A stretch of DNA of 64,000 nucleotides, taken from the IMG/VR virus record IMGVR_UViG_3300031992_000044. The stretch is one strand, 5' to 3'. The notes under the pieces are model-generated. The model was given only the letters and a program-made list of their open reading frames with translations. It had not been told where the DNA came from and made no database searches. The stretch's first letter is position 1. The number at the start of each line of letters is the position of its first letter. Positions 9,751 through 56,289 of this stretch are shown here, piece after piece. A program made the translations under genes and the position numbers. The DNA comes from a virus.

Positions 9751-12700
9751 ATGCCAAAGAAACGCAAAAATAGTAAAAACACGAAATCGTATTATGATCC
9801 AAATCTTGAAAAAGGATACGCCATAATGCGTGATCCACAAGGATTTTAGGATCTTGGCGACGCACTTACGCTGCACGATCGAGAAATAGAAAAATTGATA
9901 GATTCTGAGGTTGAAAAATACAACCAACAGAATGCCGAAGAGATTGAGTGGGAAAGAAAGAAACAAGAAGAAAATATAGAATCAGAGGATGAATCACAGT
10001 TGATAAAACGCAATCAACGTTCTTTATTAGGACAGCTCGCTGATGCATCTCGCGATCCCTTTGCTGGGGGATCTCCGGAAATGCTATCTTTTTCTGATAG
10101 ATTAGGAAGAGCATACGGTCATGTATAGGCCGGAGATATTCCGGGGCTGCCAGAAAATTATAACCTTGGAGATTTCTTTAAAGACCAATGGAACTCGTTC
10201 TTTGGCGAAATGAACAAACTCTAGGCAGAAGATGCCAGAGGTTACCAAGTGCGAGCAGAAAACGATAAGAATCTCATAAAAGACTACATGGATTCTTTAG
10301 ATAAGCTCGACGAAATAGACTATATTGATAAAGAGCTACAAAATATTAACAGTTTGATTCAGCAGCCAGATATGACTGCTGGTCAGATTGCTAATCTTAA
10401 AGGAGAACGTGCAAAAATGCTCTCTGATATAGAAAGACTTAAAAGAGAGTACGATGCCCTTGCTCCAAGTAGATCAATGTTGGAAGATATGACTGACCAG
10501 TCTAAGCTTGGCGCTTGGGTTGACGGTTCTATGTCAGGCAATGAAATATTTGGAAGCGGAGATTGGTGGAATCTGGCTGGTAGAACTACAGCAGGTCACG
10601 ATTAGATGAATGATGCTCGTCGGTTCTTGTACAATCTCAAAGATGGCAATCTTGATAGAAATTAGAAGAGATAGGCTTTGTCTCGTGCTTACAAAGAGTA
10701 TGGTAAGCTTAATGAAGACTGGAATGCCATCATAGAAGAGAATGAGAATGAAGCTCAGAAGCACAACGATAAGATATCTAAATGGTTCCAAGGTAGAGCT
10801 GAGAAAGCTGGTATAAACTTCACTGATCCAGACACATACTTGTTTAAGATGCCTGGAATCATGGGCGGATCTGCTAGTTCTTATATGAAGCAAGTTCCTG
10901 CTATGCTTGCTGGTATAGTGGGTGGTGCTGTTGGAGCTAGTCTTGTTGGAGCTGGAGCTCTTGGTACTTCTGCAGCACTTGCTGCGACTGCTACTGGTGC
11001 GGGTACATCTTTTGCATTTAATAGAGCTGCTGGTATATCAGAAAATAACGCGGAAGTTGCTCTTGCTACTATTGAGAAAGTAAAAGAGCGTACTGGACTT
11101 GAGGAAGATGATATCAAAAAAATATTGTCTGGCGAAATGACAGATCCAGCCAAGCTTAGAAAGATTACGGAGAATATACACAACGTAGAGAATCTATTCC
11201 AACAAGATATGGCAGCTACCACATGGGATGCTGCTGTAGACGCTATGCTCATGGCTGTTCCTATCGGCTTTATGTCAAGTTTAGGCAAATACCTTAAAGG
11301 TACAAAGGCTGTAGAAAAGCTTATGGAGAAAGCGGGAACTAAAGCTGCTTTAGCTGAGCGTTTCGGTAAAGACTTTGTGCAAGGGTGGGACGCTGGTAGT
11401 CTAGCTAGTCCTCTGGCAGGCGTAGGCGCTGGTTTAGCAAACGCTACGATCGGTAGAGGCGTAAGAGCCGGTGTATCGAAAGTAAAGAATATACTCGTAC
11501 GAAAGCTTGACGACACGTTTGACGGTGCACTTATTCACGATCTTGTTCGTAATACTGAGAAAGTAGCAGAATCAGTAGGTAAACTAAATCCCACTAGAAT
11601 CGCAGCAGAACAAGCTGCTCAGAAAGGCCTTCTTGCTCAGTATATGAAAGGTATTGGTGGAAAAACCATTAAATCTACTATTGCTGAAGGTATTGAAGAA
11701 GGTAAGCAGCACGTAAATGCAGAAGCCTTTAAGAACGATTTATCAGATCCTAAGCTTAAGAGTACCATGGAAGTTGCGTTCGACGATATGATGAACGGAC
11801 TTACTATGGGCGCTTATGTTATGGGTATACCTCTCGATGGTCTTGGGATTATAAACATCAAGGATCAAGATCTTCTTCAAGAGATAAAAGGAGGTATGCT
11901 TGGTGGATGGGGTCAAACTGCTACCGTGTCTGTCGTCCAGTCCACTCTTCCTTACGTTAGACAGAAGAGTGCTCTTTCTGCTGCTGTAGAACAAATATAC
12001 GCAGACAAGTTGTCTTCTACTGCTATGATGAAGCAGTATAAGTATTGGCTTCAGAAAGGTTTGATGAAGCCGACGCAGAACGATATGAATGTAGCGTTCA
12101 ACATGTTGCGCAAAACCAACGACGATTATGAGAAGACAAATGGTGCTACTGCAATTGCTCCAAACTTGATAGATGAAGCGCAAAGGCAATATAATCATGT
12201 TATGTCTGTTGCACAGAATCCTCTTACTAGAAAGATGGCGGAGGATGCTGGAATAAAAGTACGTTCTTGGAATAATCCTTCTTCGTGGAGAAGTAATGAG
12301 GAATACTATAATTTTGTAGCAGCGAAAGTAGCAGCAGAAGATCGAATCGGAGAAGTTGTTCAGAATCTCAATAATGCTGATTATAAGCTTCAACAAGAAA
12401 GAATGCGAGTACAGCAAGAGTTGACACGTGGGGAAAGCGATATACAAAGTCAATTAGGACAGTTACAGCGTGAACGTGCTTCTTTATCTGGATGGCAGAG
12501 TACAGATGAAATGCCGTACAGTAATGAAGAGGATTCTATACGCGAAGATACTGCTACAGAATCACAAAACGACTTTATTTATACTGACGAAATAGCACAA
12601 CTTGCGGCATTATATAAGTATCGCGAGCAGATAGAACGCGGTATAGAAGCATAGAAAGGTAGTAAGTATGTAAAAGTGTCTCGTGGCCTAAAGAGTGAAC

Positions 12701-15700
12701 TGAAGTGGATAAACAAGCAGATTGATAACTTTACAAAAGAACACAGCAATATACAAGAGTTATCAAATACACTTAACAATGGCAAAAGTATAAATACTTT
12801 GCAAGATTTGGAGGACCATCTTGTATACAATCAAGATCAACACGAACGTCTTTCTGAAGCTTATTTGGATGTATTAAAATGGCAAAGCGAGCGTAATACA
12901 GTAGAAGTTGCAAATAGAGAACTTACTGGTACTCTTAAATATGTAGATAATGACGGTAAGATAACAACTCCTCCCGCAGATTGGGATCCTATACATAATG
13001 CAAGCGATTTGAAGCATGTTAAATATGAAGGAAGTAAAGCGCAAGATATGATGCTGCGAATGCATTCTGTATGGGATGAAGATGACGCTTTTGAACAGGC
13101 TGTAGAAACAGTATACCAAGAAGACCTTAAAGCTCAACATCTTAATGATCAAAATGCTATAGAAAACCCGTATGAGATTGATCCAAACAGAGAAAAGATT
13201 CCTGTAAAGGATGCTAACGGTAATCAAATATAGGTTCAGTTTGACGAGCAAGGTAGAATAAACAGAAAACTTGCTGACAATGAAACTATCGACGATCAAG
13301 GAATGCTATGGCAGTACAAAGATCATCGTACAGATAATCCTGTCAATCGTATAAATCATTCTGCTCCTACCACAGAACAGCAGCAAGAGGCCGATAGAAT
13401 AGCCTTTAGAGAAGCTTGGAATAACATCAATGGACAGCCATTACCACTTACTCCAGAAGGCATGGTAGAACGCCGTCAGAGAGCTTTATTTGAGGCAGCT
13501 AGAGCAAGAGGAAGCTGGGACGTAGAAAACCCGCCACAGAGCTCTAAAAAGGCATATACGAAGCCATCTAGTACCGTTTATACAGTAGATAAATTTGGTT
13601 TTGTTGCATATGAACAACCAGAAGAAGATTCTCAAGATACTGTACTCAACGATATTGAGCGTAGATTCTACGAAGATAAGTAGACGGTTTAGAATGATCC
13701 AAATGGTTATCATACTACAAGCCAGGATTACTTTATTCTACAAGATGGTAAAGTTGTAAGAGCGTCTCGTGTGCACAATGTCAAACCAGAAGCATATATA
13801 CACGAAGATCAAGAAAAGGAAGTAGAATCTATATATAAAGATTTGCTGTCTGCTACTTCGTTACAAGAATTTCTTGAAAAGATACCTGAGAACATCGGAT
13901 CTTCTGAAAATATAAGTAAGGTTGATCCGTATGCTATTTATATTACAGAAAACGAAGATATATTCTTTAACAATCCGTCTGCAGAAACAAAGCGCGAATA
14001 CGACAATACGTTACGTCATCTTGCTCAAGCAATCGTTGATGCTAATCGAAATAGTTCCGTATCAATACTGGTAGGTAACATAGTAGATGAGATATCTAGA
14101 AACTTCTTTGGTTCTGACGTTTTGTACAACTCTACATAGACAGAAGAAGGTATAAAAGCTTTATTCAACTCTAAGAATGAAAGCGATTGGCGTACATACA
14201 ACGAATTGTATAGAGGAAATTATGACGCATTTGCTTCGTTGATTCGCTCTTTACGAGGAATGTACGAGTATTATACCAATACGCTTGGTTGGAAGTTGAC
14301 AACTTTGCCATTTACTATTCGTGCACAGTTTAATGATCTTGGATGGGTTGCTGGCCAGCCTGATATGATTGGTATAGATAAAAACGGTCGTGTACATATC
14401 ATAGACTTTAAAACGTCTAAATATACATTTGGATCTGTATTAACACCCAATATCCAACTTACTCAGGATTATCAGAACGACCTCAAGTTACTAAAGAATG
14501 AAGACTTCTACAGTCCTGACGGATTCGAGCGTAAGAGTATTAAAGCTAGGCGTATTCTTAGATCTATAAAGAACGATGGTTATAAGAATATAGATATACA
14601 GTGGGATGGAAATAGAGCCGTTATATCCAATAAGACTAAGCCGTTCCATAGTCTTCCTAATCAGTCATATGGTTAGCAAATATCTGCATATGAAGATTAT
14701 AGCAACCAGCTTACTGCTTATGCAGAAATGTTGAAAGCTAATGGATTCGATGTCGCTTCTATAGAGATTCTTCCTTTTAAAGTATCATACGACTATGAGT
14801 TTACAGAGCCTGGAAAAGGCATTGTTCGTATACAGATGGAAGATCGTACTCCATTGACATTTAGCTCCAGTATGAAGAGTATACTTGATGGAGTAGAGAC
14901 TAGAGAAGATCAAGTTATTAATAAGGCTCAAGAAGACTTACATAACAATATTGGTAATCTTCAATACAGAATAGATAATCTAGTAGAGAAGATCTCTGAC
15001 GAAGTGTTCAATGAGCTTTCTGATCAAGGAAAACTGTTATATTCTGACTTCATCGCAGAGGCTAGAAACGCATTATATGAGGCAGAAAATGTACTGTACG
15101 AGAACAACTCAAGGGATCTAGATGTTCTAAATGCTCAAAACGACGCCATAGAGGACATTTTGAGCCGTTTTGACGCGTTTTTAAAGGATCTACGAGAAGA
15201 TTATAATCAGGCTCGCTCAAAGGCCGCTCAGCAGGCTGAAAATGAGTCTAAACGCGACCAATAGAAGCGTAGAGAATCTCAAGATGATGATCAGCCTGCA
15301 AATGGCATTATTTAGGCTCCAAACAAGCGGGATAGTGCTGGTAATACTACTAGATCTAATCTTGACTATAGACGTGTAAATAGTGATCCTGAGCTTACTA
15401 GAGCTACAATGGCTCCTAACTTTATAGACGACGCCGATATTACTCTGTACGTAGAAGGAGATGATATATATGCAGACATACAATTCCAAGGTCACATTTG
15501 GTAGCGTGTTCCTATTGATACTAAATACAACGATACGTGGATACCAAACAGTAAAAAACTGCACGATGACATAGAAAGAATGCAGCGAGAACATCCAGGA
15601 GCTCGTATAGTACCTGTAAAAGCTACCATGACCCGTACTGCAGGAAGACCTAATCTTCTTGTTAAAGATAGACATCTTGTGTATTAGGATGTTAGAAATA

Positions 15701-18700
15701 CTGATTTGTTTGCTGGTCAAGATATTTATGATATTGAGTTCTCTGCTTCATATCAACGTATAGGATATGTAGACGATAAAGGCGTTGTGCTTACATTTGA
15801 AGATGGAAAGACAACTACACAGCCCTTGTATCAATGGCCCGATGCTAGAATGGCAGCGCACCCTGGTACACTTATATATCTGAAGCCTACACCCAAGAAT
15901 GAATGTCCTTCTAATAAGAAGACAAACAGAGTTGTTGTAGCAATAGACAGGGTTAAGATCAAGCAGAATGATGTAAACTTCATCATAGAAGCTATTAAGA
16001 ACCCGTCTTAGCTCGATAAACCGTACTTTAAGGAGATTAATGGTACTGTATATAACTTGCATGCTACTCCAAGACAGTTGATCAATCTTATTATACCGTT
16101 TGTAGATAGTCCAAATTAGTTATATAATTTTGATAGTATCATACGTGATCCTAACAATCCGACGGTGGTATATATCATGAAGCGTGCTGATTTAGAGAAG
16201 CAGACCACTGGTAGAGGAAGATTTGATTTATCTACTGAAGATGGAATAAGGAACTTTACTTTGGCATTATAGAATATGTCAATAGCTGAGCGTCATGAGG
16301 TTCTTTCTAGCAGACTTGGTACATTCTCTAAGACAGAAGGAGAAGTATTGCCGTTTGGCGGTATCAAACAGTTCTTTATAGAACAAAATGGTGCTATTAC
16401 AGGTCTTGACATCACAGATACTATAAAATTTGATCTTGAGGACTTTAAGACTGTTACATCTAGTACAGGTGTGCGTAGACAAGGTGTTAGTGGATTTGGA
16501 TACTACTTGAAGCACGGTATGCTGCGTACACAATATGCAGGGATGGGTAGCGCTAACGTTGAGATCAAAGATGCTGTTATAGATGCAGGACAACCTGCAG
16601 AAGTCCAATCAAACGGAATTCAGGCTATTCCTAATATGGAAGAAACTCCTAGTACCATTGATTCTAGTGAGATTGACGCATTCTTGATGAAAACTGTTGA
16701 TCATACTAACAAGAATAAATCTCTGTCTGAAGAGAAAGCTCGTAAGCATATTGAGGAAATACTTGGAGATAGTGTTCCGGTAGAATTCCACAATACATTC
16801 TTACGTGTACTGTATAGCAAAGCTCATGTAGTTGGTAACTGTAAAGCCGACGCTATCGTACTTTCTAGTCTTGGTTGGCCTGGTGTAGAATATCATGAAG
16901 CATTCCACAGAGTATTTGAAATGCTGCTCTCTTCATATGAGCGCGATATGATATATCACAAGATAGCTAAGCGTATTGGAGTTGATCTATATGATCAGTA
17001 TGGCAACGAAAACAAAGAAGCGTTTAGATAGGTAGCTGAGTATGCAGCTGATCATTATATGCAGCATATGAATCATCATATGACTGATATAAAGATTCCA
17101 TTTATTACAAAAGTGTATAATAAGATACACGATTGGGTATCTGCATTGTGGCACATTAACGATAGAGACCTCTACAAGATATTCGCAAGAGTAAATCGTG
17201 GAGAATTCAGGAATGCCAAACCTTCTCAACAAGCTATAGATAGGTTTAATAGATTGTTTAGTGAACTTCATTGTGAGATTCACGGTATACCGTTCGATCA
17301 TATAGTCAACAGACCCATGTACGACAAGTTAAGGCAGAGTGTAATGTTCTGTGTACTGCAAGGTCAGAATATAGATCCTTCTGGTAGAAATATTCAGGAG
17401 ATTGGTAGACATATCGATAAAGAAACATTCTTGGCTGGTGTAGAAAAGCTCAAGAAGAAGGGATTAGATATATTTGGCGATTCTACCGACATTCCTACTA
17501 TTGGACAGTTGGCAATGAAGGAGATCTATGATAACTTTGATAACGACTTTTTGAGAGATGATATTGCTAATGATATATCTGTATTATCTACCGACTTTGT
17601 GAAGGAGTTCGAAGACGAATCTATAGAAGATGCTCAAAGCGACGATGTAACAAATGCAAACATTGGAGAGCATACAAGAAGCTCTTATGAATTTAGCAGA
17701 TTTAGTAAGACGTCAAGTAGAGTAAGATTCTTCTTTGCTACTATTCCTGATACAGCATATCAGAGAGTAACAGAAACACTTCCTGATGGCAAAACTACTG
17801 TAAAGATGAAGCAAGTTCTTGCTACGAACGAATTTGGTCTTCCACAATACGTTCCTGTACATGCCGTATTTAACGAATTCTTGAATCTGTTCCACGATGT
17901 AGACACTCTATCAGAGCTTAAAGCTAGACTTGAGTTCTTCGCTAAAGAAGACTCTATGTACAATACGCTGTATAAAGCCTTCGATAAGATATATAAGAGT
18001 GTATACACGATAACTGATGGAACTATAACTAGAAATTCAGACCAAGAAGCACTTCTTGTTCAGTTGATGAACGTTATTAGGTCAAACAAGCATAACTTCG
18101 ATATAGCTCGTTCTATGACCACGAACAATGGTCATGGTATGCATCGCATTGTTATATAGACAACAGATGCTGACTATAATGCTACATTCTATCCTACTCA
18201 ATGGAACCAGATGCTTGTTAATGGCGGTACTCCTCTGATCAAAATTTCTTCTGATGGTAGTCTCCAGTTTAATAGAGCTCACAAAGGAGTAGAGCAAAGT
18301 TTTGCTAATATGGCAAATCTTATGTCCCATGGATCTACTATAAAGACTGCTGAAAACGGAGCTTCTTATAATGATGTCGGCATAAAAGAATGGCTTATAA
18401 ACGCTGTTGTTGGTGGAGAACAAAATCTCTTCTTACGTTTGAAGGTAAACGGAAAATATGCCTATTTCAACAATCCTAAGAATCCAGAACAGCTTGAGGT
18501 TGTAAAAGATAAGATTGTAGAAATGCTCAATATGATTGGTATCCAGTTTAGTGCAGACGAATTTAACTATATGTTGCGCAACAAGTATGGATCTACTGAT
18601 TATGAGGCATTGGCTAAAATGTTTACATCGAACAGCAGAAACGATTCTATGAAGTCGTTCTTGAAGTTCTTGATGGATGTTGCTCCTAATGGCAAACTTC

Positions 18701-21700
18701 AGAAGGAAGTAAGGATAAACAACAAGACAGTTAAGCTTGAGAACGCATATGCTAAGATGGCATTTGTGAGAGATCTTGCAAACTGGAAATATCAATATAG
18801 ACATTCACACGATCAACTTACTGTACTTGCTACCAACAATAATAAGTTCTACGAGATATCTGATAACAACTATGCTTCTGACGTTGCTCGTATGATAAAC
18901 AAGCGCACATCTGAGCTAGACGAGTTACTTGCAGATCCATTTGCTTACTTTGAAGGAGAAGAAGATGTAACTGGTGAGCGTCCTGTATACGGATCGCTTA
19001 TACTTAAAGAGATTACAAGAAATCCTGATGCGTTTATTACACTTAGAAACTTTGTTGGATTTAAGACAGATAAACGTGGAGATACTGGCTCTGACTACTT
19101 CCAAATCAGTAAACGTGAGGACTATGTTGCGAAAGCTACTATTCTTGAACAAGGCGGTATTATAATGCCAACTCTTTCAGATAAAAAAACATGGTTGTAT
19201 ATAGACGGTATCAAACTTCCCGGTCTTGATTACTCCGGTACTGTAGACGAGAATGGAAATGTCGTTGCCATGGCAGCAGAGAGACTCGGTGACCAGTTTG
19301 TTATTGCTGCAGATCCTATGTCACAGCTCGATAATGTACTGTCGCAGAATGAATCTGTTATTGATCAGTTTATATCTTATGCTTATTCTGAGTATGAGTC
19401 TGTAAAGAAAGCAGATCGTGATTTGGATGAAATGGAGAAGAACGGCACGAAGTCTAATAGTGTAGCAAACTACTATACTAAAGAACAAGGTGCCAAATTT
19501 GGCTCTCTTCTTGGTGTTTGGGTTTATACTTATAAGAAAGGCAAAGATGGACAGCCAGTAATATCTGGAGAGAAGTTTGAGTCGTTCAACAATAAGAAGC
19601 TCACAAGAAAGAAGAATATTGAGCGTGCAGAGAAGTTCTTCTTTAATCAGCCGCATGAAGTATAGCAAGCTCTTATTGCGAGATTATTACATAAACAACT
19701 GCTGAAAGAGATAGACACGTGCGTAGAACTCGGTCTTATTCGTAAAGTAGATAACAGCGGTAACATCTTTGGAGACTACGAAAATGTTGGTCTTAATAAC
19801 CAAGCGATCGACGCTATATACAAGTCTATTGTACTCAAGAACGGACAACCTAAAGATGCAATAGCAATGACCAAATATAAGTCATTGGCTACATTGATAT
19901 ACTTAAACGATATATCCAACAAGGCTATAATGTCTGGTCACGAGTTTGAGCGCGTATTCTCAGGTAATCCTGCATTCTATAAATGGGGTTATGATGACGC
20001 TACTGGAGCTCTTGTAGACCGAACAGTCGACGAATTGAAACGTCTTGGTGGTATTGTATCTACAGGTAACAATAACTTTGTAGAGCTACAAGATGTTCCT
20101 TCTAAATACTTAGACGAAGAAGGCAGGTTCAAAGGCACATATGTTGCTGCAGAGGTAGACAATGAATTGATAGAATCTCCGCAGATTGACTTTATTCAGG
20201 AGCGAATGTTGTACGGAGAGGTTCTTACTGCTGCTTACAATAAAGAAGAGCAACGTAGACTCCGTGAATACCGAGCAAAGTATGACATGCTTATACAGGC
20301 CTTAAATAACGGCGAAGAATTATCGCAAGAAGATTATGACTGGATTAATAGTGCCAATCCTCAAAAAGACGAGCAGTAGATACGTGAAGACATATCGCAG
20401 ATGCTTGATTCTGTAGAATTAGAAGACCTTAAGAAGTTGCTCGATAGTACGACATTAGCTATTGCTGAAAGAAAGGCTAAAGAAGCTACAGATAGCTATC
20501 GCTTGAAATATAAAGACGGAAAGATAGATGATGGTATTGATGTCGCTGATGGTGGTGCTTATATTACAGATACGATGGCAGAGATGTTGCTTCGTATGAA
20601 CGGTAACTATAGCACAGATATTCAGAAAGCATTTAAGATTCTTCGTGAAGAAGTGCCTTCCAGTCTTACCCAGAAGTATCAAGCATATCAACAGGTTGTT
20701 ACCAGTGTGATTGGATCACAAAAGTATACAGCATTTGGTAGAAGAAAGCATACTGAAACAGGTACGCAAGTAACGTACTATAACAAGATGGCTTTGTTCC
20801 CATTGTTTAAGTGTATAGCTACGGGTAGAATGCAAAATGTTTACCAGAAGATGCAGCAGCAGGGAATAGATATGCTCATGATTAATTCTGCTGTAAAGGT
20901 TGGTAGTGAAGGATCTAAGCCGATTGATTGGGATCAATATCCTCAGACTGAATCTGACGATAGAACGTTCAATGAAAGCTTTGACTTCAATACATACGAA
21001 CAGAAATTTATGTACTTAAGAAAACAGCTTAACACAGACCCGAAAGAAGAGTCTATGATGAGCATGGGTACACAGATGACTAAGGTTGTTATGTCAAGCT
21101 TGTTTGATGGCCGTACTTATTATATGCAGGACGGTACTGAAATGAATGGTAAAGAACTTCGTGACGATATCATGAATGCTATAAACACTCTGTCTAATAG
21201 AGGACTACATAACATTGTAACCAGATTCTTTAAGACCGATAATAAAGGAAATCTTATAGACAAAGATGGCAACGTTATATCTGACGATTCTGCACACAAA
21301 GTTCTCGATGAGAGCAAGTTTGCTAAAGAAGTCAGAAATATGATGCAGACCAAAGATCCTGATCGCAATATCATAGATGCACTAGAGATAGTAGAACAGA
21401 CTGATGCTGATGGCAAGGTTACAAAACACATGAGGCTTCCTCTTAATGCTATTTCTAATTCCAACTGGCTTGAGAGCGTTCTTATATCTTCTATCAACAA
21501 GAAGGTAGTAGATATAGAAACACCGGGTGCTGCGTTTATTCAGAGATCTGTCTGGGCTATGGAAGGTTCTACGATGTTTGATAGAGTCAATGGATCTGTT
21601 CTTAGTGATGAAGATCTTCCTGCTTCGATAAACGGCGGAAATCGTCTATAGATGGTCAACGAAGAAGGTTCTATGGACTGTGTAGTCAGCTTTGATTTCA

Positions 21701-24700
21701 TTAAGAAGATGTTCAAAGGAGTATTACCAGTAGTGCCCATCAAGGATAACAAGACTCGTAATGTAATATGGGATCTTATACCAGAGACCGACTCTAAGGG
21801 TAATACTATTATGAAAGATGGTAAGCCTGTATACAAGCAGAAGAAGGATAAAGATGGCAATCTTATGTTTGACAAGGATGGTAAACCTATCTACAAGCGT
21901 AAGATTCGTACACGTGAAATGTCGTTTGATGAAGCTCGCAACTGGCTTATTAATCGTGGAATCATAGGTCCTAATGCTACTGCAAATGTGATTGGCTATC
22001 GTATTCCTACTCAGGCACAGTCTTCTATTCACGCTTTGCGTATAGTAGACATTCTTCCTGTTGTGAACGATACTGTTATACTTCCTGCAGAGTTTACTAA
22101 GATTACTGGTTCTGACTTCGATATTGATAAACTGTTCTTGTCTTCTGTTCAGTACACTGTTACCAGAGAAGAGGGAGAGGATGGTAAGTTCCATCAAACA
22201 GTATCTAGCGACTTTAAAGAGACCAATCCTGCTTACTATTAGAATAAACTGTTGAAAGACTATCTTGCAGTTCTTCTTGATTGGACTTCGCATGAAGATA
22301 AGAAACAAAGAACAGTAAATATTCTGCATAGATCTATTGATAATGATACAAAGCTTCTTAAAAATATAATAAAAGACTTAGAAGAAGGTAAAGGTGTTAA
22401 GATGGAGGAGCCATACTCCTTCTATTCTCTTAGCACACAGACCGCTTCCAAGGACGATTATATTACTGGTAAGATTGGTATCGGACCATTTGCTTTGAAC
22501 AACAACAACCACATTCTTACTATGATGTATCATGTCAGATTCAAGCACATAGAGTCTAGTATAATGGCAGCTCTTGATCTTGAAAACCTTGACAGTCGAG
22601 AGGATAAGAATCACGAATCCATAATGTCTTGGATATCTGCACTTATTAATGCTCACGTGGATATTGCTAAGGATCCGTATATTAGTAGATTGAATGTTGG
22701 TCCGTTTACTTATAATCTTGTGAACCTTCTTATTAGAACTGGTCTCGGAAGCAAGACATTCTACTTTACTACTCAGCCTATAATGAAGGAACTTGCAAAA
22801 GCATATGTTAATGCTGGTGCATTGTATATGGCAGATCCTCATAAAGGTAAGTATAAACTACAGCAAGAAGCAATAGAGAATCTTGCCAATGAGTATTTTG
22901 AAGAGCTCGGAGATGATGCTGCTAAGAAAATATAGATCATAAAAGAAGGTGGTGTTAAGAATGCTAAAGCTCGTGCTGAGATAAACTTGGAGATAAAGAA
23001 GTTATTTGAAGGCGATGCTCTTAGACAGGCGGCTAAGTCTAATACTGTGAATAAAGAACAGCAGTTACTTGTATACCTTGCTTGCTTACAATTCGATAAA
23101 TATGCTAATGCTTTATCTAATCTTGTGAAGTATAGTAAGATTGATACAAAGAAACATGGTAAGAGTATTGTTGAACAGATGATATATCAGAAAGGGTATG
23201 CTAAGACGTTTGATATATCTAGACCCGATAACTTGTTTGAAGCCACTGGTCTTTCTGCTATGTAGAATGATTCGTATATTGCTACTAAGACATAGAATGC
23301 AATAGGTAGTACAAGATCCATTCTTTAGAGTCAATTCATACAAAGCACACCTTCATTCCAAGGTAGCGTAGATGAAATACTTACAGCTATTGGTAGAGAA
23401 GAATCGTTGTCTGTAAACCTTGTAACAAAAGTATGTAATGCACTCAGTGCTGCTGTTAAGTCTCAATTCTTTGTTGATACATATATTCCGGCAATAAGTA
23501 GTAATCCTCATTACGCCCACGATCTTGTTAGTGAGAGTCAAGAGTATATGGACTTTGTTGTGAACCAGAACGGCAATACTGTTCAACTGAACGGGACAGC
23601 TGTACACGACCTACAATCTTACTGTAATGGAGGTGTGGCTTGGCTTATATACAAAGGACAAGATGGTAAAGACTATCAAATTCCTTTAAATGTAATTGGA
23701 GCTGATACAAAGAACAATACAATTACAGTAGACAAGTAGATTCCTAAGATGTACGGAAAAGTACTCCTTAAAGGTGGTAAGAATACTATCTATGATAGAC
23801 TTACTAGACTGAAGGTTGCTATAGCTACGGATCCACAGTACGCTCCGTTAAGATCTGAATCTGGAGATATCAACAATAGATTGTTGTAGATGATGGTTCC
23901 GGGTACTACTACTGAATATAAACCATCGTTTATAATCGGAGAACATCCTGATACATACGAAACATCTAAGTTTGTGAAACTGTTTAACTTTGTTGAAGAC
24001 AGCGGTAATACTGCAAACTATATTATTGGCGGATGGGAGGAGCTGTTACAATACACAGATCCACAACATCCAGAAGCTCAAAAGATCGTACGAGATTTTG
24101 CTAGAGATTTGATAGTTTACGCATTTATTACTTCTGGAGATAGAGGAGGTTTTACTAAGATGTTCAAGTATGTTCCTGCTTCTTGGAGAGAGGAGTCTGG
24201 ATACGGTCAGTTTATACACGATAAACTTGCTGAATATTCTATAGGGTTTAAAACAGATATAGATATAGACGATGTGCTTCTTAATAACTGGTATGACAAT
24301 GAGCTTTGTCCCACGTATCAATTACAAGATAAACGTACAAAACAGTCTAACTTTATGAAGTATTATACTTTGAGGGATAACAAGAGACTTGGATTCCCAA
24401 CAATTCTTGCTGCTCTTACTATCAAAGATGGCAAGCTTTAGACTACTATAGATCCAGCAACAGCTCCTAGATTTATTAAGGTTCCTAGACGACAAGATTC
24501 TAACGCTAGTGATAGTCAGCGTAGATATACTGTATATAAGATGCATAAGATTGCTGTCGGTAACAATGGAATAGAATATCCTGTATATATTAAAGTTAAC
24601 TAGAAAGGTAATCAAGTTAGTGGAGGATTTATCATTACAGAGTATGGTAGAAATGATAATATGAATCAACCAGAATATTCTATAAACGAAGATACTCTGC

Positions 24701-25518
24701 GTAAAGTATATCAAGCTTCTACTGTAGCAGACCATATCAATGCTGTCAAACGTACAGAACCTATATATGCTTCTATAATAGAAGGTCTTAATAGAGCTTG
24801 GAATAAAGAGCAAGAGAGTCAAGGTATTACTGATCAGAAAATACAACAAAATATAAAATCAAACGTCATTTCAAAAAATATTTCTAAGTTTAATTATTTG
24901 CTTATAGAAGGAGATCCTATAAACATATGGGCTGGGTCTAACGAAAATTCTGAATTTAGCAATTTGTATAATAGGCCGTTTAAATATAGTGGAATTAACT
25001 TTAATTCTGTAGAACAAGCATTCCAAAGGGCGAAATTTGAAGGTCTTATATGGTGGTTAGATATGTATTCAGAAAATAGAGAAGCTACTAATAGAGTTAT
25101 TAATCAAATAAGGCAAGCGATAGATGATATTATGAATGCTAAAACTGGAGCCGAAGCGAAACAGATAGGTTAGCGTAGATTTACTACACGTAGTCCAAAA
25201 ATAAAAGAAAATATAGATCTATATTTTTCAGATAAAACTTACAATAAAAATTGGAATGATAAGAATGAAAGAATTATGAAAATTTTAATAATGACTTCAT
25301 TCGAACAGAATCCAAAAATGTTAGAAAATCTTTTTGCTACCGGTCATAGGCCATTTACTCATACGCAGGCTACAGATAAATGGAAGACAGAATTCCCAAG
25401 AATACTATAGGAAGTGAGATCTGATTTGTATGAATATAAACAAAAATTAGACAGCGATGGATTCTCTAGCGAAGAGATAGAAAAAGCAAAGTAGATAAGA
25501 AACAAATGTAAAGAATAA
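9751..25518 (+). CDS. giant multidomain virion protein containing an RNA-polymerase-type DxDxD motif (5255 codons), TAG-recoded
   Basis: ATG at 9751. All 21 track ORFs from 9895-10128 to 24661-25173 are in frame 1. Every gap I read contains only TAG interruptions (36 counted) and no TAA/TGA. Ends TAA 25516-25518. Confidence 0.7.
14290..14730 (+). other. RecB/Cas4-like PD-(D/E)XK nuclease motif set inside the giant protein
   Basis: GQPDMIGIDKNGRVHIIDFKTSK (the D, then D-x-K) is followed about 100 codons later by NQLTAYAEML (QxxxY). Confidence 0.5.
16894..16908 (+). other. HExxH (HEAFH) zincin-type metallopeptidase motif inside the giant protein
   Basis: Context is GWPGVEYHEAFHRVFEML. This is a short motif only. 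Confidence 0.35.
22114..22128 (+). other. DFDID (DxDxD) catalytic-type motif of two-barrel RNA polymerases
   Basis: Context is AEFTKITGSDFDIDKLFLSS. crAss-like phages are known to carry a virion RNA polymerase with a DxDxD motif inside giant proteins at this genomic position. Confidence 0.55.
24900..25420 (+). other. C-terminal NADAR (YbiA/DUF1768)-like domain of the giant protein
   Basis: INIWAGSNENSEFSNLYNRPFKYSGINFNSVEQAFQRAKF ... GAEAKQIG ... NWNDKNERIMKILIMTSFEQNPKMLENLFATGHRPFTHTQATDKWK follows the order of NADAR family motifs (LSNF-like, SxEhyfQaxKF, AK-lG, W...KF-QNP-L...L-TG, D-xW). Confidence 0.55.
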
Positions 25519-25520
25519 TT

Positions 25521-28500
25521 ATGAATCCGTTTTGTCCAAATTTAAGTAATAAACAAATAAGTTCTGAGTTTTAGGAACTGGTTAGCATTTTTGGTGAAGA
25601 CAAAGCGTATTTTCTTTGGGATATGAATAACGGGTATAGCTTAGACAAGACTCCAAACGGAGAGGCGTCTAAGCTGTTCTCCGGCTTCTTTAAAGCATCT
25701 GGAGATAGAGTAAAATCTATGAAGAACGTACAAAGAAGTTTGATGTCTGTAAGAAAAGAATACGTTGCTCCAAAGATGGAGTAGTTATCTATTTTGCCAG
25801 AATCCGAAATTTTGTCTTCTGTCTCGGATATAGAAAAAGTAGTAAAATCTGCATTTCAAGGCTACAATTTTTCTATTTATGAATATAATGGTAATTTGAT
25901 ATTACGAACCAAAGCAACAAACGCTCAAAAGTTTAAAATGAACTTGGGGCGTGTACTAAAACCTCTAGGTTATAATATATCCCCTGTATTACAATATGCC
26001 GGAGATAAGGTTAAAATAAAAATAACTAAAGCTAAACAAAAATAGCAACCGATTACACAACAGCCAATTCCTACTGGAGAAAGAGATTTGGCTTACTTCA
26101 GATATGATAGAGCTCTGTATGAGCAAGAACAAAGAGAATTTGCTGATCTGGATGAAGAGTATGTACAGAAGAAGAGAGAGTATCAATCTCCAGAAATGAA
26201 ATTAAAATCATTAAATACGAAAGATGATTTATTAAACTCTGGTGCAACTACAAACAATCAACAAACACAATCTTCCAGCTTTACTATCTCTTTTGCTGAT
26301 TCTATAACTCAACAGATGTATGACATTGGTGTACAAATAGATATAGAGCGTAGACAGTTTATACGCAATGTACTTGATCAGTATAAGCAAAATCATCCAA
26401 ATGCATCTCAACAAGATGAATCTAGAATAATAACAAGTGCTAGACAACAATTTGATACTACTAAATCCAATCAGATTATGTAGCAGCATCAAGTTTAGTT
26501 GGCTTAGATGTTTGGTCTCTAGATGAACACGAACGGCTTCTACGAGAGTCAAGAAACGTCTCAGAAAAAACTGATGTTAGAACATTTTATAAATAGCCTT
26601 CAGGAAGCCACTTTTAAGGCCTACAACCTAGAGAACATCAACAGAGGTAAATATCAATAGGTCGGCGCAATTCAAAGCGCTGCAAGCCTTGGAAATGTGC
26701 TCTACAATGCTATTTACAACGGAGATCTAACTACGCTTGACAAAGCAATGGCTAGAGATTATGTCAGAATGTTTTGGGCATCTCCTTTGATACAAGCTGC
26801 ACTGGAGTCATTTAATACTAGAGATGCTCAAGCTGCAGAAGACGCTCTTGTAAATAAGATTACGCAAGAACCAGTCGAATCTAGAGATACTAGTATAGTC
26901 GATTGGTTTAGGAATTTCTGGAACCAGCTTAATAATCTTGTACAGCAGATATTCGGTGTACACACATTTACTGATCAACAGAAAGAAGATATACTCAAAG
27001 GAGTGGATACTGCATTCATGATCGGTGAAGATCTTGAGCTCGCCAATGAGAACTCTATTATACTTGATAGATACGATGGAGATTTTTCCACTTCAGACTT
27101 ACTATCTGAGAAAGACAAGAGCGTTCTTACTGACATCTACAATGGAACCAAAACTAGGGTTAGATCACAGCAAGCTAGAACAGCGCAGAATCCTAAGTTG
27201 ATAGCAGACCTTAAGAGTAGGCTTGAGATCATAGATGGTAAGAATCAAGACTCTCTTACTGATACGTTTGACATTATAGAAGACTTCTTGATCTTTGCCA
27301 ATAAAGAGATTGGAGAGACTAGACATCTTATTGATCATACGTTCCTAACAGCAGGTTCTATGGATTCTTGGAACCCTCAAGAGATTAACTTTATTTAGCA
27401 AGATCTTATTGGTCATTATGACAATCTGTTAAATAGTATATACGAGCTGTTCTCTGATAAGTCTTCTGCTGTAAATAAATACAACGAGCATAGAGCTGCT
27501 AATGATCCAAATGCTATTGATCTTAAACATTATACATCACAACTTATACGGGCTATAGATTCTATAAAGAAGGACTACAACCAGAATATAGTAAAGCCTT
27601 ATGTTAGAAAAGTTCTTACAGACTATGTCAACGAACAAGATGCTATAACCGACAAAAAGACGTTTGTATATAACATGGAGCGTTGGCTTGAACAAGATAG
27701 CGCATATGGTGATCTTGCAGCAGGTGAAGTTCTTATAGGTATGGCTTCTAGATCTAAGAGTCCTATTGTTCGTATAGTTGAGAAGATGATGTCTGAAGCA
27801 GAGTTTGATACAAATAGACAAGTTCTTAAGAAAGGTAATGAACTTGTACGTCTATATAATAAGATACGTCCAACAGGATCTCAAATAAGTCCGTATAACT
27901 GGCAAAAGCGCTTTATGGAGCTTGATAGAGACGGTCTTCCTACTGGTTACTTTATTCGTGATATCAATGAAGGACAGTTCTACATCGACAAAGATAACTT
28001 CGAAGCGTCACTTAGAGCTAAATACGGTTTAACTGCTGATCAAGATGGCCATACTATCTTCCCAGAAGAAGAGTTTACTAAGAACGATAGCGTTTATAAT
28101 AAGTATAATGATGAGCTTGATGAATGGCTAGACGAACGTTGTAATAGACGTTATACATTGGAATACTATAAAGCTAGACGTAGATATTTGTCTCCAAAGA
28201 CATTACAAGCACAGAATAGAATACAACGCCAGATAGACCTTATTCTCGATAAATGTCGTATGGCTTCTGGATTAGTAGACTTATCAAAACTTACTTTAAA
28301 CGAGCGTAGTTAGCTTAATATGTATCGTAAACAAAAACGTGATCTTGGTAGTCATTACATCTTTACAGAAGGTACTGATGGTATACTCAGGGTTGAAGAG
28401 AAGGTAGGCGATGCATTAAAGATGGCTGACGAAATAAGCGAATGGAATAAATATATAACCGATAAGGTTAAATATAAACCGGACTGGACAGCATTTAATA

Positions 28501-31442
28501 AGGCTATCGCTGATATGCAATCAGAAGGAGCAACATAGGACGAGATAGACGAGTTTAAACGTAATAATACCGTGATGCGTATTACTCCTGAGTTCTATGA
28601 TATACTACATAGAACGGTAGGAACTGCTGCAACTAGTAAAAAGTTAGAGTAGCTTAAACGTAGACATTCTGAAATATTGTAGGCTCTTAAAATGAGAGAA
28701 GGCGCTGGACGTCATAATCTTACAAAACTTGGTTCGGGTCTTACTACGGATCAATCCGGTTGGAGAGAATTATAGAGACTTGAACAAGAAATGGCCAATG
28801 AGAAGCACAGACTTAAGGCCGCTGGTTTAAAAGGATAGCCTGGAGAAATAGAAAGTCTTAATTTTTCTGACATAGCTGTAATGAGGTATGTGCCAGTAAG
28901 TGATGTTGACGACACTTCTTACTTATATAGTCTTATACAACAATGGAAATCTGCTGCGGTATCTAATACGAACTTAAATAATGTATTCAATGAACTATTC
29001 ACGTATAAAGATGAATCTGGCAAAATACGTTATTTGAAAGCATTCCAATATCTTACTCCAATGAAATGGACTCTTACTGTGGAAGATGAAACTATAAGAT
29101 GCATAGAATCTCTTCCTGGTAGTGAGTATTCTGAGCTTGATGAAAGTTCTTCATTTGTAAACGATAAGTTCGTTAAGAATGGCAAATCTATACAAGTTAA
29201 AGATGTCTATAAGAACGAAGCATTTAGTAAGCTTACCGCTGATGAAAAGCAATTCTTAGACGCTCTTACTGCTACTATGGATGAAGCAAATTCTATGATT
29301 CCTAATAAGTCATTATACAGAGACGGCAGGCTTCCTTAGATAAGTGGTAGAACTATGTCTGTTCTTTCTAATACACTTAGAGCTAAAGAATGGAGTACAG
29401 CTTTAAAATATCCATTTAGAAAGTTTGGTGTTAAATATGCTGAGACAGATCAGGATGTTACTACAAATATGGACTTGGCAAGACGTCCAGATGGTTCTGT
29501 TGTAAACAATATACCTATTAGATTTGTAGAAAAATTGCCAAATACTGCAGTATAGACTACAGATGTACTTGGTTCTGTAATAGCTTACTTTGACATGGCT
29601 TGTAACTATGCTAATAAGTCTAAGAATCTTCCTACACTTGAGCTTATTAAGTATGCAGTAGATCCATCATAGGCTATCAACGGTAATAAGATGAATGATC
29701 AGTATTCTAAGATTGAGAATATGCTTGATCAACGTTACTATGGTAAAGAAACATCTTTCGGATTTAGTAGTGATGAAAAGATAACTCCGTCTAAACAAAG
29801 AACTATATAGGCTACGAAGACTATTAGAAATCTTGCTGCTGTAGCTATGCTTGGTGTCAACTTTACTACTATTGAGGTAGGTTATATTGACGCAATGTGT
29901 TCTATGTTATCAGATGCTGTAGGTGGTAAGTATATTACAGGAGCTGATATGCGTAAGGCATTTGCTTACTGTATTGCTCATACTGGTAAGATGTTATCCA
30001 ACTTAGGTAATCCTGTAGTAGAAGACAAGCTTGTTGCAGCTATGCAGTTTAATCAACTTAGTAGAAGCAATTCTGAAATATTCTCTTCAACAGACAAGTT
30101 TAAGTTTGACAGATTTGTACACGATCATCTTCTGATGGGAGGTTATACACTGGCGGATTATATGGTTAATAGTATGATGCTTACAGCTACATACAACCAT
30201 TATAAACTTATGACTAATCCTACTACTGGTAAACAGCAGTTTATGTCTAAGAGTGACGCTATCAACGTATTTACCTCTGTTGGTTATACTGAGAAAGAAG
30301 CTGTTAAACAGTGGAAGAAATCTAAGACTACATTATGGGACGCATATGAGCTAAAAAACGGATTATTTGTTAGAAAAGCTCAATATCAAGATGCCATAAC
30401 CAAGAAGTTAGAAGATCAAATAGCTGGTAGATTAAGAGACCGCACAGCCATCTATAACGGTATTGTTCCAATGACAGAGAAGGCTAAAATGCAGTAGAAT
30501 GTATTCGGTTCATTTGTAACGCTTATGCGTAACTTCTATGTCAATACTTATTGGGATAGATTTAAGACTGGTGGTGACTATATTACAGAAGATGGTGATC
30601 ATCATATAGGATGGACATCTGAATATAAACGTGATGATCTTGGTCTTGTCAATCTTGAAACCGGAGAGTTTGAAGGAGCTGTATTCAAAGACTTTTGCAG
30701 AGGAATGTACAAACTTGCATCAAACGCTAAAGCTTTATTTAGAAGTACAGATGTCAACAAACTTACTAGTGAACAAAAGTATGCTGTAAACAGATGTCTT
30801 ACTGAACTTGGTATAATCACAAGTTTGATGTTCTTGATGTTGTGGAGCGTAGCGTTTGCTCGCAGCAATGACTATGATGACGATAAAGATCCCGTTTGGC
30901 TTGTTAACATAGCTGGTTTAATGCCGTGGACTAAAGAAAAACTACTTACGTTCAACTTTGATAATGCCGATAAGAAGTTCTTTGACTTCTTAAGGTGGAA
31001 ATTAGCATTGTTGTCAACACGTGGATTTACCGAACGTCTTACTTCTTGGTGGGCGCCTACTGTTCTTGAGTTGTTCACATCACCATCAACAGCAAAATCT
31101 TATTTAGACGATATCGGTACGATTTGGGATCTCGCTTTAGACATGTTCAGTCAACATGCGGAAGATGAAATTAAGACTGGCGGATATAAACACATGACTC
31201 GTAGAACTCGAGATGTCCTAAAACTTACTTCTGCATTCGGTGTTGATAATTTGGTTCGTCAATGGCACACAGATGGCATCAAGTCTACGTTTAACTATTA
31301 TAGAAAACTTACACCAACAAGCGCAATAGTTCCATCGCAGCAAGAATGGAATGAGCAGCAAGGTTTAGGAAAGCACGGAGGAAAGAATACAACGAAGAAA
31401 AAGAAAAACAAGAAAATAAACATAAATGGTTTTGCCGAGTGA
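25521..31442 (+). CDS. second giant virion (cargo/ejection-type) protein, 1973 codons, TAG-recoded
   Basis: ATG at 25521, 2 nt after the previous TAA. All track ORFs from 25794-26045 to 30525-31442 are in frame 3. 20 in-frame TAGs counted, ends TGA 31440-31442. Hydrophobic LTELGIITSLMFLMLWSVAFA segment and a basic KKKKNKK tail. Confidence 0.65.
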
Positions 31443-40100: not shown

Positions 40101-40133
40101 AGCTTACTGACTCTTTGGTTCTCAAGTTGGTTA

Positions 40134-41999: not shown

Positions 42000-42025
42000 G
42001 ACTCAAAGGTTCTAAAGATTAATTG

Positions 42026-55762: not shown

Positions 55763-55833
55763 TAGCGAGTGTGGGACTCGAACCCACCAGTTTACAGATT
55801 TACTGAAACTTACCGACTGCGAACAGACTCGCT
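55763..55833 (-). ncRNA. tRNA-like element with extended anticodon-arm hairpin
   Basis: Minus strand: AGCGAGT ... AGTTT-CAG-TAAAT-CTG-T-AAACT G GTGGG TTCGAGT CCCAC ACTCGCT A. The 7-bp acceptor and T arm are perfect. There is no proper D stem, and the anticodon arm is an 8-bp stem with a 5-nt loop. Confidence 0.45.
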
Positions 55834-55861
55834 CCACCCACTTAGGTAGGGTTCACCGACT

Positions 55862-55973
55862 TCACGCTGCCTCCTTGAGACCCGTGTAGTCAACGATATT
55901 ATAATCGCCGTTTAAATTTATATCAAAGCGTTTAATGTCTTACTTTCCACTGCTGTCAAATCCAGTCAGGCCC
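55862..55973 (-). ncRNA. ssrA-like: tmRNA-like coding piece (5' acceptor strand, D-loop analogue, P2a, candidate tag frame)
   Basis: Minus strand from 55973: GGGCCUG A CUGGAUUUGAC AGCAG ... Then the frame GGC GAU UAU AAU AUC GUU GAC UAC ACG GGU CUC AAG GAG GCA GCG UGA (55909 to 55862) gives GDYNIVDYTGLKEAA. Confidence 0.5.
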
Positions 55974-56061
55974 ATAATGCCCACATACGGCCTACGAGTG
56001 GGCTGCGCAGATAGTCACCCCTTATTCGCTCTATGTGACAGATAAAACTTGGGACTTGCCG

Positions 56062-56096
56062 TGGACCTGGAGGGATTCGAACCCTCGTCCAACAGC
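56062..56096 (-). ncRNA. ssrA-like: tmRNA-like acceptor piece (P2b, T arm, 3' acceptor strand, discriminator A)
   Basis: Minus strand: GCUGU UGGAC GAGGG UUCGAAU CCCUC CAGGUCC A. The 3' strand pairs with GGGCCUG at 55973-55967, giving G3:U70. Confidence 0.55.
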
Positions 56097-56289
56097 TCAT
56101 TCTGGGACACGCTAAGATTCTTGTGTAGAACGTTCTGATGATCGGTCAAAACATTCAATTTAAGGCTATTTTCAGGCTCTCTGAGACGTTTTCTAGGCTT
56201 TTGTGGGTAGCTATTCCACTCAAGCTTTAAAATGGCTTAGAAAGGCTTATTTTAGCCTTAAATAAAGGTTGAATACGTTGGTCTACCAC

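Follow-up and report, generated by a model that had tools for sequence, protein, structure and literature searches.

A NADAR domain inserted ahead of the conserved tail of a giant virion RNA polymerase protein in a crAss-like phage

The stretch of viral DNA examined here (64,000 nucleotides, called the window below; IMG/VR virus record IMGVR_UViG_3300031992_000044) comes from a gut phage, a crAss-like member of the order Crassvirales, that reads TAG as an amino acid in its late genes. One of these genes encodes a 5,255-residue virion RNA polymerase (RNAP) protein, which is a polyvalent cargo protein and carries a NADAR domain about 40 residues from its C-terminus. The domain belongs to a module that is a predicted ADP-ribosyl N-glycohydrolase. 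Taken as a whole, the reading in which this ADP-ribosyl-base hydrolase is packaged, ejected and used as a counter-defence is judged somewhat probable. The narrower proposal that its substrates are guanine adducts in DNA specifically is held with a little less than even confidence.

Phage NADARs acting as free-standing, orphan antitoxin-like counter-defence are already established (PMC11257639), and virion-packaged NADARs have been proposed in general terms (PMC9503650). In a full-text literature search that paired crAss with NADAR, DUF1768, YbiA or ADP-ribose, this fusion was not described in any paper; its only trace on record is an automatic 'DUF1768' label on phage cr126_1. What is new is the covalent, recurrent combination of a NADAR with a crAss-type polymerase at a defined insertion site; the chemistry and the delivery strategy are familiar.

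The giant gene and its NADAR domain

A first-pass annotation of the window had read a NADAR motif order at 24.9-25.4 kb, and all of these motifs are present in + strand frame 1. The features that bear on the domain and its fusion are as follows.

9751..25518, + strand: giant open reading frame (ORF) for the polyvalent, virion RNAP-containing protein, with RNAP homology and a NADAR domain; a single stop-to-stop ORF solely with TAG as sense
20770..23013, + strand: crAss-type virion RNAP core (about residues 3674-4421), from a phmmer search against PDB 6VR4
22114-22128, + strand: DFDID motif (residues 4122-4126), aligned to phi14:2 gp66 in a ...TGSDFDIDK... block
24850..25446, + strand: accessory module of about 200 residues (about residues 5034-5232), missing in sister phages and lying between body and tail
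24940..25380, + strand: NADAR domain (Pfam envelope, residues 5064-5210), from PF08719, PHROG, YbiA and PnNADAR matches and an AlphaFold2 model of the homologue P0002
24955-24966, 25006-25038 and 25151-25171, + strand: motifs FSNL, SVEQAFQRAKF and AEAKQIG, joined in the motif set by W..ERIMKILIMTSFEQNPKMLENLFATG and DKW
24958..24963, + strand: Ser5070-Asn5071 of the N-terminal (F/L)SN motif
25012..25014, + strand: catalytic Glu5088
25033..25035, + strand: phosphate-binding Lys5095
25171..25173, + strand: in-frame TAG inside the NADAR domain (codon 5141), spanned by the Pfam match
25360..25362, + strand: His5204, on the domain's last strand
25408-25410 and 25492-25494, + strand: further in-frame TAGs (codons 5220 and 5248)
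25426..25515, + strand: conserved C-terminal tail LYEYKQKLDSDGFSSEEIEKAKQIRNKCKE, with a Cys about four residues from its end

The domain and its fusion to the giant protein become visible solely when TAG is read as a sense codon. In the standard-code ORF list the domain is broken by the TAG at 25171-25173, and the sole ORF there is 170 residues long (24661-25173). With TAG as sense, the giant ORF runs for 5,255 codons from ATG 9751 to TAA 25516-25518; within it TAG occurs in frame 36 times, TAA and TGA never. The in-frame stops in the stretch translated around the domain (24301-25510) are all TAG, and the + strand region, fragmented under the standard code, merges into a few very long ORFs. 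The seven long + strand ORFs between 73 and 31442 contain 101 in-frame TAGs in total, each of these ORFs having about 7-28 TAGs for every 1,000 codons. The main - strand ORFs in the other half of the window (32000-64000) have few or no in-frame TAGs, and those present lie mostly near ORF ends. The - strand gene at 40131-42002 apparently ends in a TAG followed directly by TAA, and at least one TAG looks like a true stop.

Homology to known proteins runs on across the in-frame TAGs of the giant ORF, and Gln predominates in homologues at TAG codons 3305, 3967, 4164, 4663 and 4713. Many late-only TAGs, with Gln at the matching homologue positions, are the pattern of genetic code 15. There is thus good support for sense decoding of TAG, most likely as Gln, throughout the late module on the + strand. 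Late-gene TAG-to-Gln recoding is described in crAss-like phages, with confirmation by metaproteomics for Suoliviridae (PMC10136315). In the annotation of the related references cr131_1 and cr130_1 (Suoliviridae), the same genes are read across dozens of in-frame TAGs. Of the in-frame TAGs in the giant ORF of the window, three fall within or past the NADAR module, that at codon 5220 in the conserved helix EFPRIL(M/Q)EVR, and 23 more lie upstream of the DFDID motif of the polymerase core. The module is therefore translatable only under the late-phase decoding that it shares with the essential polymerase.

Two other gene models were rejected. The standard-code reading was dropped, its 170-residue ORF ending within the domain and the evidence for TAG as sense being favoured. 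The public Joint Genome Institute gene call (P0001, 24661-25173) follows that reading, with a 170-residue 'hypothetical protein' that has an internal Met start, a stop at the mid-domain TAG and no Pfam annotation; standard-code gene calling conceals domains such as the NADAR module. A separate NADAR gene beginning at ATG 24661, the only candidate internal start, was rejected as well. This Met is Leu in the 84%-identical homologue P0004, which runs unbroken from the upstream region into the NADAR domain, and the tail of the giant protein follows the domain.

The polymerase core matches the DNA-dependent RNAP gp66 of phage phi14:2 (6VR4) with an E-value of 9.9e-18 (phmmer), and the DFDID motif block is kept in 30 related giant ORFs. 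Homology to a solved polymerase is thus accompanied by the DxDxD motif of crAss-type virion RNAPs.

A Pfam search with the C-terminal 213 residues placed the NADAR family (PF08719) above its gathering score (39.0 versus 35.1 bits; E-value 1.3e-9), in a match that spans the internal TAG. The match covers profile positions 8-127 of 163, the final part being unmatched because a glycine-rich loop is deleted in this subfamily. The domain also matches PHROG family phrog_1017 (E-value 9e-15) and, by plain sequence search, E. coli YbiA (PDB 2B3W; E-value 5e-4). A ten-row alignment (A1) was built from the window domain, its closest relatives, T4 gp30.3 and YbiA. Searched against a large protein collection, its profile matched 4,371 proteins, and PF08719 was present in 120 of 120 among the matches listed, part of the signal being owed to YbiA as one of the ten rows. 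Against the PDB the profile found 2B3W (E-value 3e-49) and the Phytophthora NADAR-ADP-ribose complex 8BAU (E-value 9e-14).

The fold was addressed with an AlphaFold2 model of P0002, the closest full-length homologue, which shares 42% identity with the window domain as well as both insertions of the subfamily (predicted local distance difference test, pLDDT, 81.6). The model has the alpha+beta NADAR fold, and its top three PDB matches in Foldseek were 2B3W (YbiA), 8BAU (PnNADAR with ADP-ribose) and 8BAT (Geobacter lovleyi NADAR). Two features set the subfamily apart: it ends in ...TH..(K)W.TEFPRIL(M/Q)EVR, and it has lost the glycine-rich loop of YbiA. By these matches, the window domain is assigned to the NADAR superfamily, in a distinct clade of its own.

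The active site is intact and of the phage type. Glu5088 corresponds to E43 of PnNADAR, E88 of E. coli C7 NADAR and E36 of T4 AdfN. Lys5095 corresponds to K50, K95 and K43 of the same proteins and stands seven residues past Glu5088, a spacing found in all characterised NADARs, where the pair belongs to the first long helix. His5204 aligns with E125 of PnNADAR (...LYE... against ...LTH... in the window), with D171 of C7 NADAR and with the His of T4 gp30.3. Mutagenesis has shown that the Glu, the Lys and the third residue are needed in PnNADAR, C7 NADAR and T4 AdfN (PMC11543638, PMC11257639). The third catalytic position distinguishes a YbiA type (Glu), a BC4488/DarG1 type (Asp) and a phage, or gp30.3/AdfN, type (His). 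All three catalytic positions, E5088, K5095 and H5204, are thus in place.

Ser5070-Asn5071 and His5204 are invariant in A1. Across 59 distinct crAss-type modules, which are about 30-40% identical overall, the Ser is kept in 58, the Asn in 59, the Glu in 58, the Lys in 59, the Thr of the LTH motif in 58 and the His in 58. Near-invariance of these six residues in such diverged modules is the signature of a working enzyme and excludes a decayed remnant.

YbiA is the best solved-structure match by sequence, and the sole NCBIfam match is a riboflavin-intermediate N-glycosidase model; both would suit a housekeeping YbiA-type N-glycosidase that acts on intermediates of the riboflavin pathway. However, TIGR02464 reaches 36.2 bits and stays below its cut-off of 73.7, the catalytic Glu of the YbiA type is replaced by the phage-type Thr-His, and it is not obvious why capsid cargo should include an enzyme of metabolic damage control. 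Together with the alternative of a decayed, non-enzymatic spacer, which the near-invariant residues contradict, this explanation is largely refuted and scarcely credible.

The T4 protein gp30.3/AdfN resembles the window domain in its NADAR fold, its Glu-x6-Lys spacing, its His at the third position and its phage origin. Like an orphan antitoxin, the window domain is without an adjoining DarT toxin, and the chemistry expected of it is removal of ADP-ribose from guanine in DNA. However, AdfN is a free-standing protein of about 150 residues, encoded by a separate small gene, reportedly among the early genes of T4-like phages (PMC9503650), whereas the window domain is a module of a late-made, 5,255-residue protein. 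The two domains share 24% identity, and the Pfam family Phage_30_3 (PF08010) gives 19.2 bits against a threshold of 36 and covers only the N-terminal 30 residues, which places the window domain in a separate clade.

DarG1 belongs to the same superfamily and would share the proposed reaction, the reversal of DarT1 guanine ADP-ribosylation, which the phage module would imitate. It has Asp at the third position, an extra conserved Lys for toxin rescue and a gene beside DarT1 (PMC11543638). The window domain differs in its His, in the lack of an ADP-ribosyltransferase (ART) in the giant protein and its neighbours, and in having no PADLOC DarG match; T4 AdfN is also without a PADLOC match.

Insertion site and recurrence

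The three closest IMG/VR relatives (L057, L058 and L065; 74-79% amino acid identity over about 1,130 residues) align with the window protein up to residues 5022-5033 and then pass directly into a tail that ends ...QKFDDSQFSDEAMKHCK(S/D), without a NADAR domain. Past its own NADAR domain the window protein has a tail of the same kind as these NADAR-less sisters, ending ...KLDSDGFSSEEIEKAKQIRNKCKE. Tails of this kind also end the proteins of cr131_1 and cr130_1 (...KEAKEMKKYCKGGN) and of P0002 (...GDGEEMNHCK). The NADAR is thus inserted where the polymerase protein's body meets a terminal peptide that is conserved, which indicates that the fusion is genuine and no read-through artefact. The first-pass annotation had described the domain as fused to the C-terminus of the giant virion RNAP protein. 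The fusion holds, with one ORF, homology to 6VR4 and the tail in its favour, and the position is refined to an insertion before the tail.

A Cys stands within the last seven residues of 39 of 49 giant ORFs, far above chance (...HCKGGK, ...KC and ...CY among the endings; ...NKCKE in the window). The tail could act as a packaging or anchoring signal, or as a point of disulfide or other covalent attachment.

More modules stand between the NADAR and the tail in other phages, namely cr130_1 (L003), cr131_1 (L001), L007, L013, L020, L037, L038, L044 and L045. They include a domain starting with LY(I/L)FTDN, superfamily 1 (SF1) helicase motifs (GYAGTGKT...HKSQG), a SLOG-like SGGQTGID segment, a DUF1848-like segment and extra HExxH motifs, all recognised by eye from motifs in the sequence. 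Accessory domains thus seem to be swapped with particular frequency just before the tail.

The NADAR module recurs widely with crAss-type polymerases. Counts from IMG/VR derive from samples, namely 49 loci listed by a signature-helix scan and the best 80 of at least 498 confirmed polymerase-core matches; some giant ORFs extend past the fetched loci, and some domain counts are lower bounds. At 46 of the 49 loci listed, the ORF that contains the NADAR spans about 700 to more than 5,800 residues; most of these 46 ORFs are in the standard code, and 37 of them also contain DFDxD. Among the best 80 polymerase relatives, 17 have a NADAR 2.7-6.8 kb downstream on the same strand and nearly always in the same frame. 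The position of the module varies: it is mostly near the C-terminus, near the N-terminus in the cr126_1 type (residue 59), and mid-protein elsewhere, sometimes before the core.

The fusion is present in annotated genomes that are TAG-recoded (cr131_1, cr130_1) and in one that uses the standard code (cr126_1, GenBank). In cr126_1 the module occupies about residues 52-205 of a 2,402-residue polymerase protein labelled 'DUF1768 domain-containing protein'. Its relatives Kolpuevirus 'frurule', cr106_1, DAC15 and DAC17 are without the module and are 77-88% identical to it over residues 211-800; relatives of cr126_1 also keep the first 61 residues, as shown for cr106_1. The only GenBank phages that match the module itself are cr126_1, cr131_1, cr130_1 and one Bacillus phage.

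By its presence and absence among relatives, the module is classed as accessory. Repeated gain or loss between near relatives, combined with a tightly conserved active site, resembles the behaviour of an arms-race accessory. Sister phages of 74-88% identity with and without the module form natural matched pairs, and the swap site in the polymerase protein could be mined for other candidate anti-defence domains.

A member of the same NADAR subfamily occurs in Bacillus phage vB_BspM_AgentSmith (L004, 2698-3411), where a 'putative toprim domain-containing protein' apparently consists of an N-terminal DUF4326 domain, recognised by motif, and a NADAR that is 35-38% identical to the crass-phage module. 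The gene adjoins tRNA genes.

Proposed delivery and target of the NADAR module

The giant protein has two further features.

14347..14742, + strand: PD-(D/E)xK nuclease-like segment (about residues 1533-1664), a weak match to phrog_298 'exonuclease' (E-value 4.8e-6)
16894..16908, + strand: HEAFH (HExxH) zincin-like motif (residues 2382-2386), recognised by motif only

Polyvalent proteins of phages and conjugative elements are giant polypeptides co-delivered with DNA, encoded in phages beside structural genes, in which at least two unrelated effector or enzymatic domains are combined; a virion RNAP can be among them (PMC5512222; PMC9503650). The window protein is of this kind, with an RNAP core, a NADAR, a PD-(D/E)xK-like segment and an HExxH motif in one late-module ORF; its delivery is predicted. 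A described precedent is the N4-like virion RNAP fused to a peptidase and an ADP-ribosyltransferase (PMC5512222). The 2017 catalogue of polyvalent proteins by Iyer et al. contains no NADAR or YbiA (PMC5512222). Frequent packaging of NADAR, Macro, Nudix and ART proteins, chiefly in myoviruses, was predicted on the basis of gene context in a 2022 survey (PMC9503650). The same survey describes phage NADARs as standalone proteins in the typical case; they are concentrated in myoviruses and occur in about 1% of other phages (PMC9503650). Neither paper mentions crAss-like phages, whereas the window NADAR is covalently part of a two-barrel crAss-type polymerase, in a podovirus lineage, and the combination extends over dozens of lineages.

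The cargo proteins of characterised crass-phages are the closest models for delivery. In crAss001, mass spectrometry of purified virions detected the RNAP-associated proteins gp47, gp49 and gp50, for which the published model is that of ejected cargo that transcribes the incoming genome (PMC10172136), and crAss-like phages are described as pre-packaging the giant polymerase (PMC10136315). The window protein shares with phi14:2 gp66 and the crAss001 cargo a homologous DFDID core and a giant late gene in the structural module, and a partner protein of about 2,000 residues is encoded beside the polymerase in the window, cr130_1 and cr131_1. However, the characterised crAss-like virion RNAPs are without a NADAR, and the window joins in one chain what other crass-phages split into several proteins.

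In the proposed mechanism, the giant protein would be made late in infection and packed into the capsid, from which it would be ejected into the next host cell with the DNA or just ahead of it. NADAR activity would then be on hand before any phage gene expression, beside the polymerase that transcribes the incoming genome. It would take ADP-ribose off bases, the likeliest targets being adducts at guanine N2 that DarT1-like ADP-ribosyltransferases of the host produce, and early transcription and replication would thereby not be blocked. The presence of the domain in the mature virion, its ejection, its substrate and the host defence that it meets are predicted steps of this scheme. T4 Alt provides a parallel, being an enzyme of ADP-ribosylation systems that is packed in the head, co-injected with the DNA and active before phage gene expression. 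Alt, however, writes ADP-ribose on host proteins, which the module would erase from its targets; Alt also has an unrelated fold and no fusion to a polymerase.

All tested phage NADARs strip ADP-ribose from guanine in DNA and allow phages to grow again in cells with DarTG1 (PMC11257639), and T4 gp30.3 is active in vitro (PMC11125620). This activity, the presence and absence of the module among relatives, and the TAGs that tie it to the late phase fit the suggestion in the first-pass annotation of a pre-packaged counter-defence against DarT1-type DNA ADP-ribosylation, which we infer rather than demonstrate.

An unlikely alternative keeps the fusion and the delivery and assigns the enzyme another target, namely soluble NAD+- or ADP-ribose-derived molecules that TIR-, SLOG- or Sir2-type defences make, for instance isomers of cyclic ADP-ribose or further toxins and immune signals. 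Immunity that works by signalling would then be blunted on entry, with no DNA repair. The Aravind group has argued for such targets in phage NADARs generally (PMC9503650). Nucleotide-signal domains follow the NADAR in some relatives (the SLOG-like SGGQTGID in L007, 'DprA-like' in cr130_1), and AgentSmith joins the same NADAR subfamily to a DUF4326-like domain, by motif only. DUF4326 has been reported fused to NADAR in DNA viruses, with a proposed role in ADP-ribose phosphate processing (PMC9503650). However, the phage NADARs tested so far all act on guanine-ADP-ribose in DNA (PMC11257639, PMC11125620). A tether to a DNA-bound polymerase also suits a DNA substrate better than a diffusible one. 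We know of no NADAR that has been shown to cleave a cyclic ADP-ribose signal.

The module might instead act late, in the producing cell. Progeny genomes would be cleaned before or during packaging, or the domain would be cut off by the HExxH peptidase and never encapsidated. The three TAG codons bind NADAR expression to the late module, the giant protein contains an HExxH motif, and self-processing has been proposed for polyvalent proteins (PMC5512222). Against these points, the tail downstream of the module is kept even in polymerase proteins that are very distant from one another, so that the module is internal to the tail-bearing unit. Its position varies, yet it is almost always within the polymerase protein and almost never a free late gene, which argues that co-delivery has been selected. 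Moreover, DarT-type defences block infection early (PMC11543638), and late repair would bring no rescue. Late action is accordingly considered quite improbable.

The tight and recurrent association with an RNA polymerase could also mean that the NADAR serves the polymerase or RNA, by removing ADP-ribose that host or phage ADP-ribosyltransferases had put on the injected RNAP, other phage or host proteins or RNA ends, or by processing NAD-derived 5' ends on early transcripts. NADARs occur beside polymerases in RNA-virus polyproteins and have also been linked to RNA-repair systems (PMC9503650), and the N4-like virion polymerase with its ADP-ribosyltransferase fusion is in keeping with such a role (PMC5512222). 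Characterised NADARs, however, cleave base-ribose N-glycosidic bonds (G and C adducts, riboflavin intermediates; PMC11543638, PMC11125620), and protein side-chain adducts are not among their demonstrated substrates. Pfam found no ADP-ribosyltransferase domain either in the giant protein or in the proteins next to it. On this evidence, a role in serving the polymerase or RNA is very unlikely.

Several points weigh against the packaged counter-defence as proposed. The fold test rests on the homologue P0002 and not on the window's own sequence. T4 gp30.3 did not rescue DarT1 toxicity in one in vivo assay (PMC11125620), and in vivo specificity varies. The Aravind group holds that phage NADARs mostly target soluble ADP-ribose derivatives and not macromolecular adducts (PMC9503650), and the window domain lies outside the Asp-type DarG1 clade, without a PADLOC DarG match. 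Self-cleavage by an HExxH peptidase could cut the domain off, though delivery would not thereby be prevented. The module is in none of the cultured crass-phages of the phage collection (DAC15, DAC17, 'frurule' and the PhiCrAssBcn phages are without it). The likely hosts are Bacteroidales, and a literature search on DarTG with Bacteroides found nothing on host distribution.

The recoding itself supplies a further point of this kind. The 64-kb window contains no suppressor tRNA(CUA), about 40 kb of the genome lying outside it, and none was found in the related IMG/VR contig L056. Such a tRNA is reported in only 35-40% of recoded genomes (PMC10136315), and the window does carry tRNA-Gln(UUG) and tRNA-Gln(CUG).

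A more specific form of the proposal, which is speculative and rather unlikely to hold in full, treats the NADAR as a 'transcription-coupled de-ADP-ribosylase' that works in cis with the polymerase after injection. The DNA that DarT-type enzymes modify is single-stranded. The bubble opened by the virion RNAP would be the earliest single-stranded phage DNA in the cell, and a tethered eraser would sit exactly where adducts form and stall transcription. The C-terminal end before the Cys-containing tail would then be a plug-in site, at which counter-defence modules (NADAR, helicases, SLOG-like domains and others) are swapped.

No viruses are more abundant in the human gut than crass-phages, yet to our knowledge almost nothing is known about how they evade the defences of Bacteroidales. 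If the packaged counter-defence holds, the enzyme would be delivered as protein in the first-injected chain and not expressed after entry. This would answer the timing problem posed by defences that disable incoming DNA before it is read.

Other parts of the giant protein and its neighbours

The PD-(D/E)xK-like segment scores 20 bits with Pfam PDDEXK_1, just under the 22-bit cut-off. The segment around HEAFH has no Pfam match, and the region is homologous in relatives; the motif may mark a metallopeptidase of the kind proposed to self-process polyvalent proteins (PMC5512222). Pfam and PHROG scans of the rest of the giant protein gave nothing beyond the weak PD-(D/E)xK match, and its first 1,200 residues match no family. 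No ART, Macro or SLOG partner was found in family scans of the giant protein and its neighbours. A megablast search of the region against GenBank phages found no close relative.

The next late gene encodes the conserved partner of the giant protein.

25521..31442, + strand: partner gene of 1,973 codons with 20 in-frame TAGs, starting 2 nt past the stop of the giant ORF

Its product is 71-78% identical in sister phages, and its position matches that of cr131_1 gp47 and cr130_1 gp80. Pfam gave no match for this 1,973-residue partner or for the other neighbouring late proteins.

In cr131_1 (L001), the DFDID block is the exact point at which the polymerase gene is split by gp49, a 243-residue protein encoded at 15687-16415 between gp50 and gp48. 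This gp49 resembles a protein of Salmonella phage PVPSE1, and the ORFs that flank it overlap in their alignment to the single protein of the window. The arrangement resembles the insertion of an intron or homing endonuclease into the catalytic site.

The window also contains a permuted transfer-messenger RNA (tmRNA) gene of the two-piece type at 55862-56110 on the - strand (Rfam RF04321, 49.4 bits against a gathering score of 47). The ARAGORN call spans 55771-56151 and predicts the tag peptide GDYNIVDYTGLKEAA. The tmRNA is kept in L056 (13004-13385) with one change in the tag peptide, and a phage tmRNA within a stop-recoding genome may merit attention.

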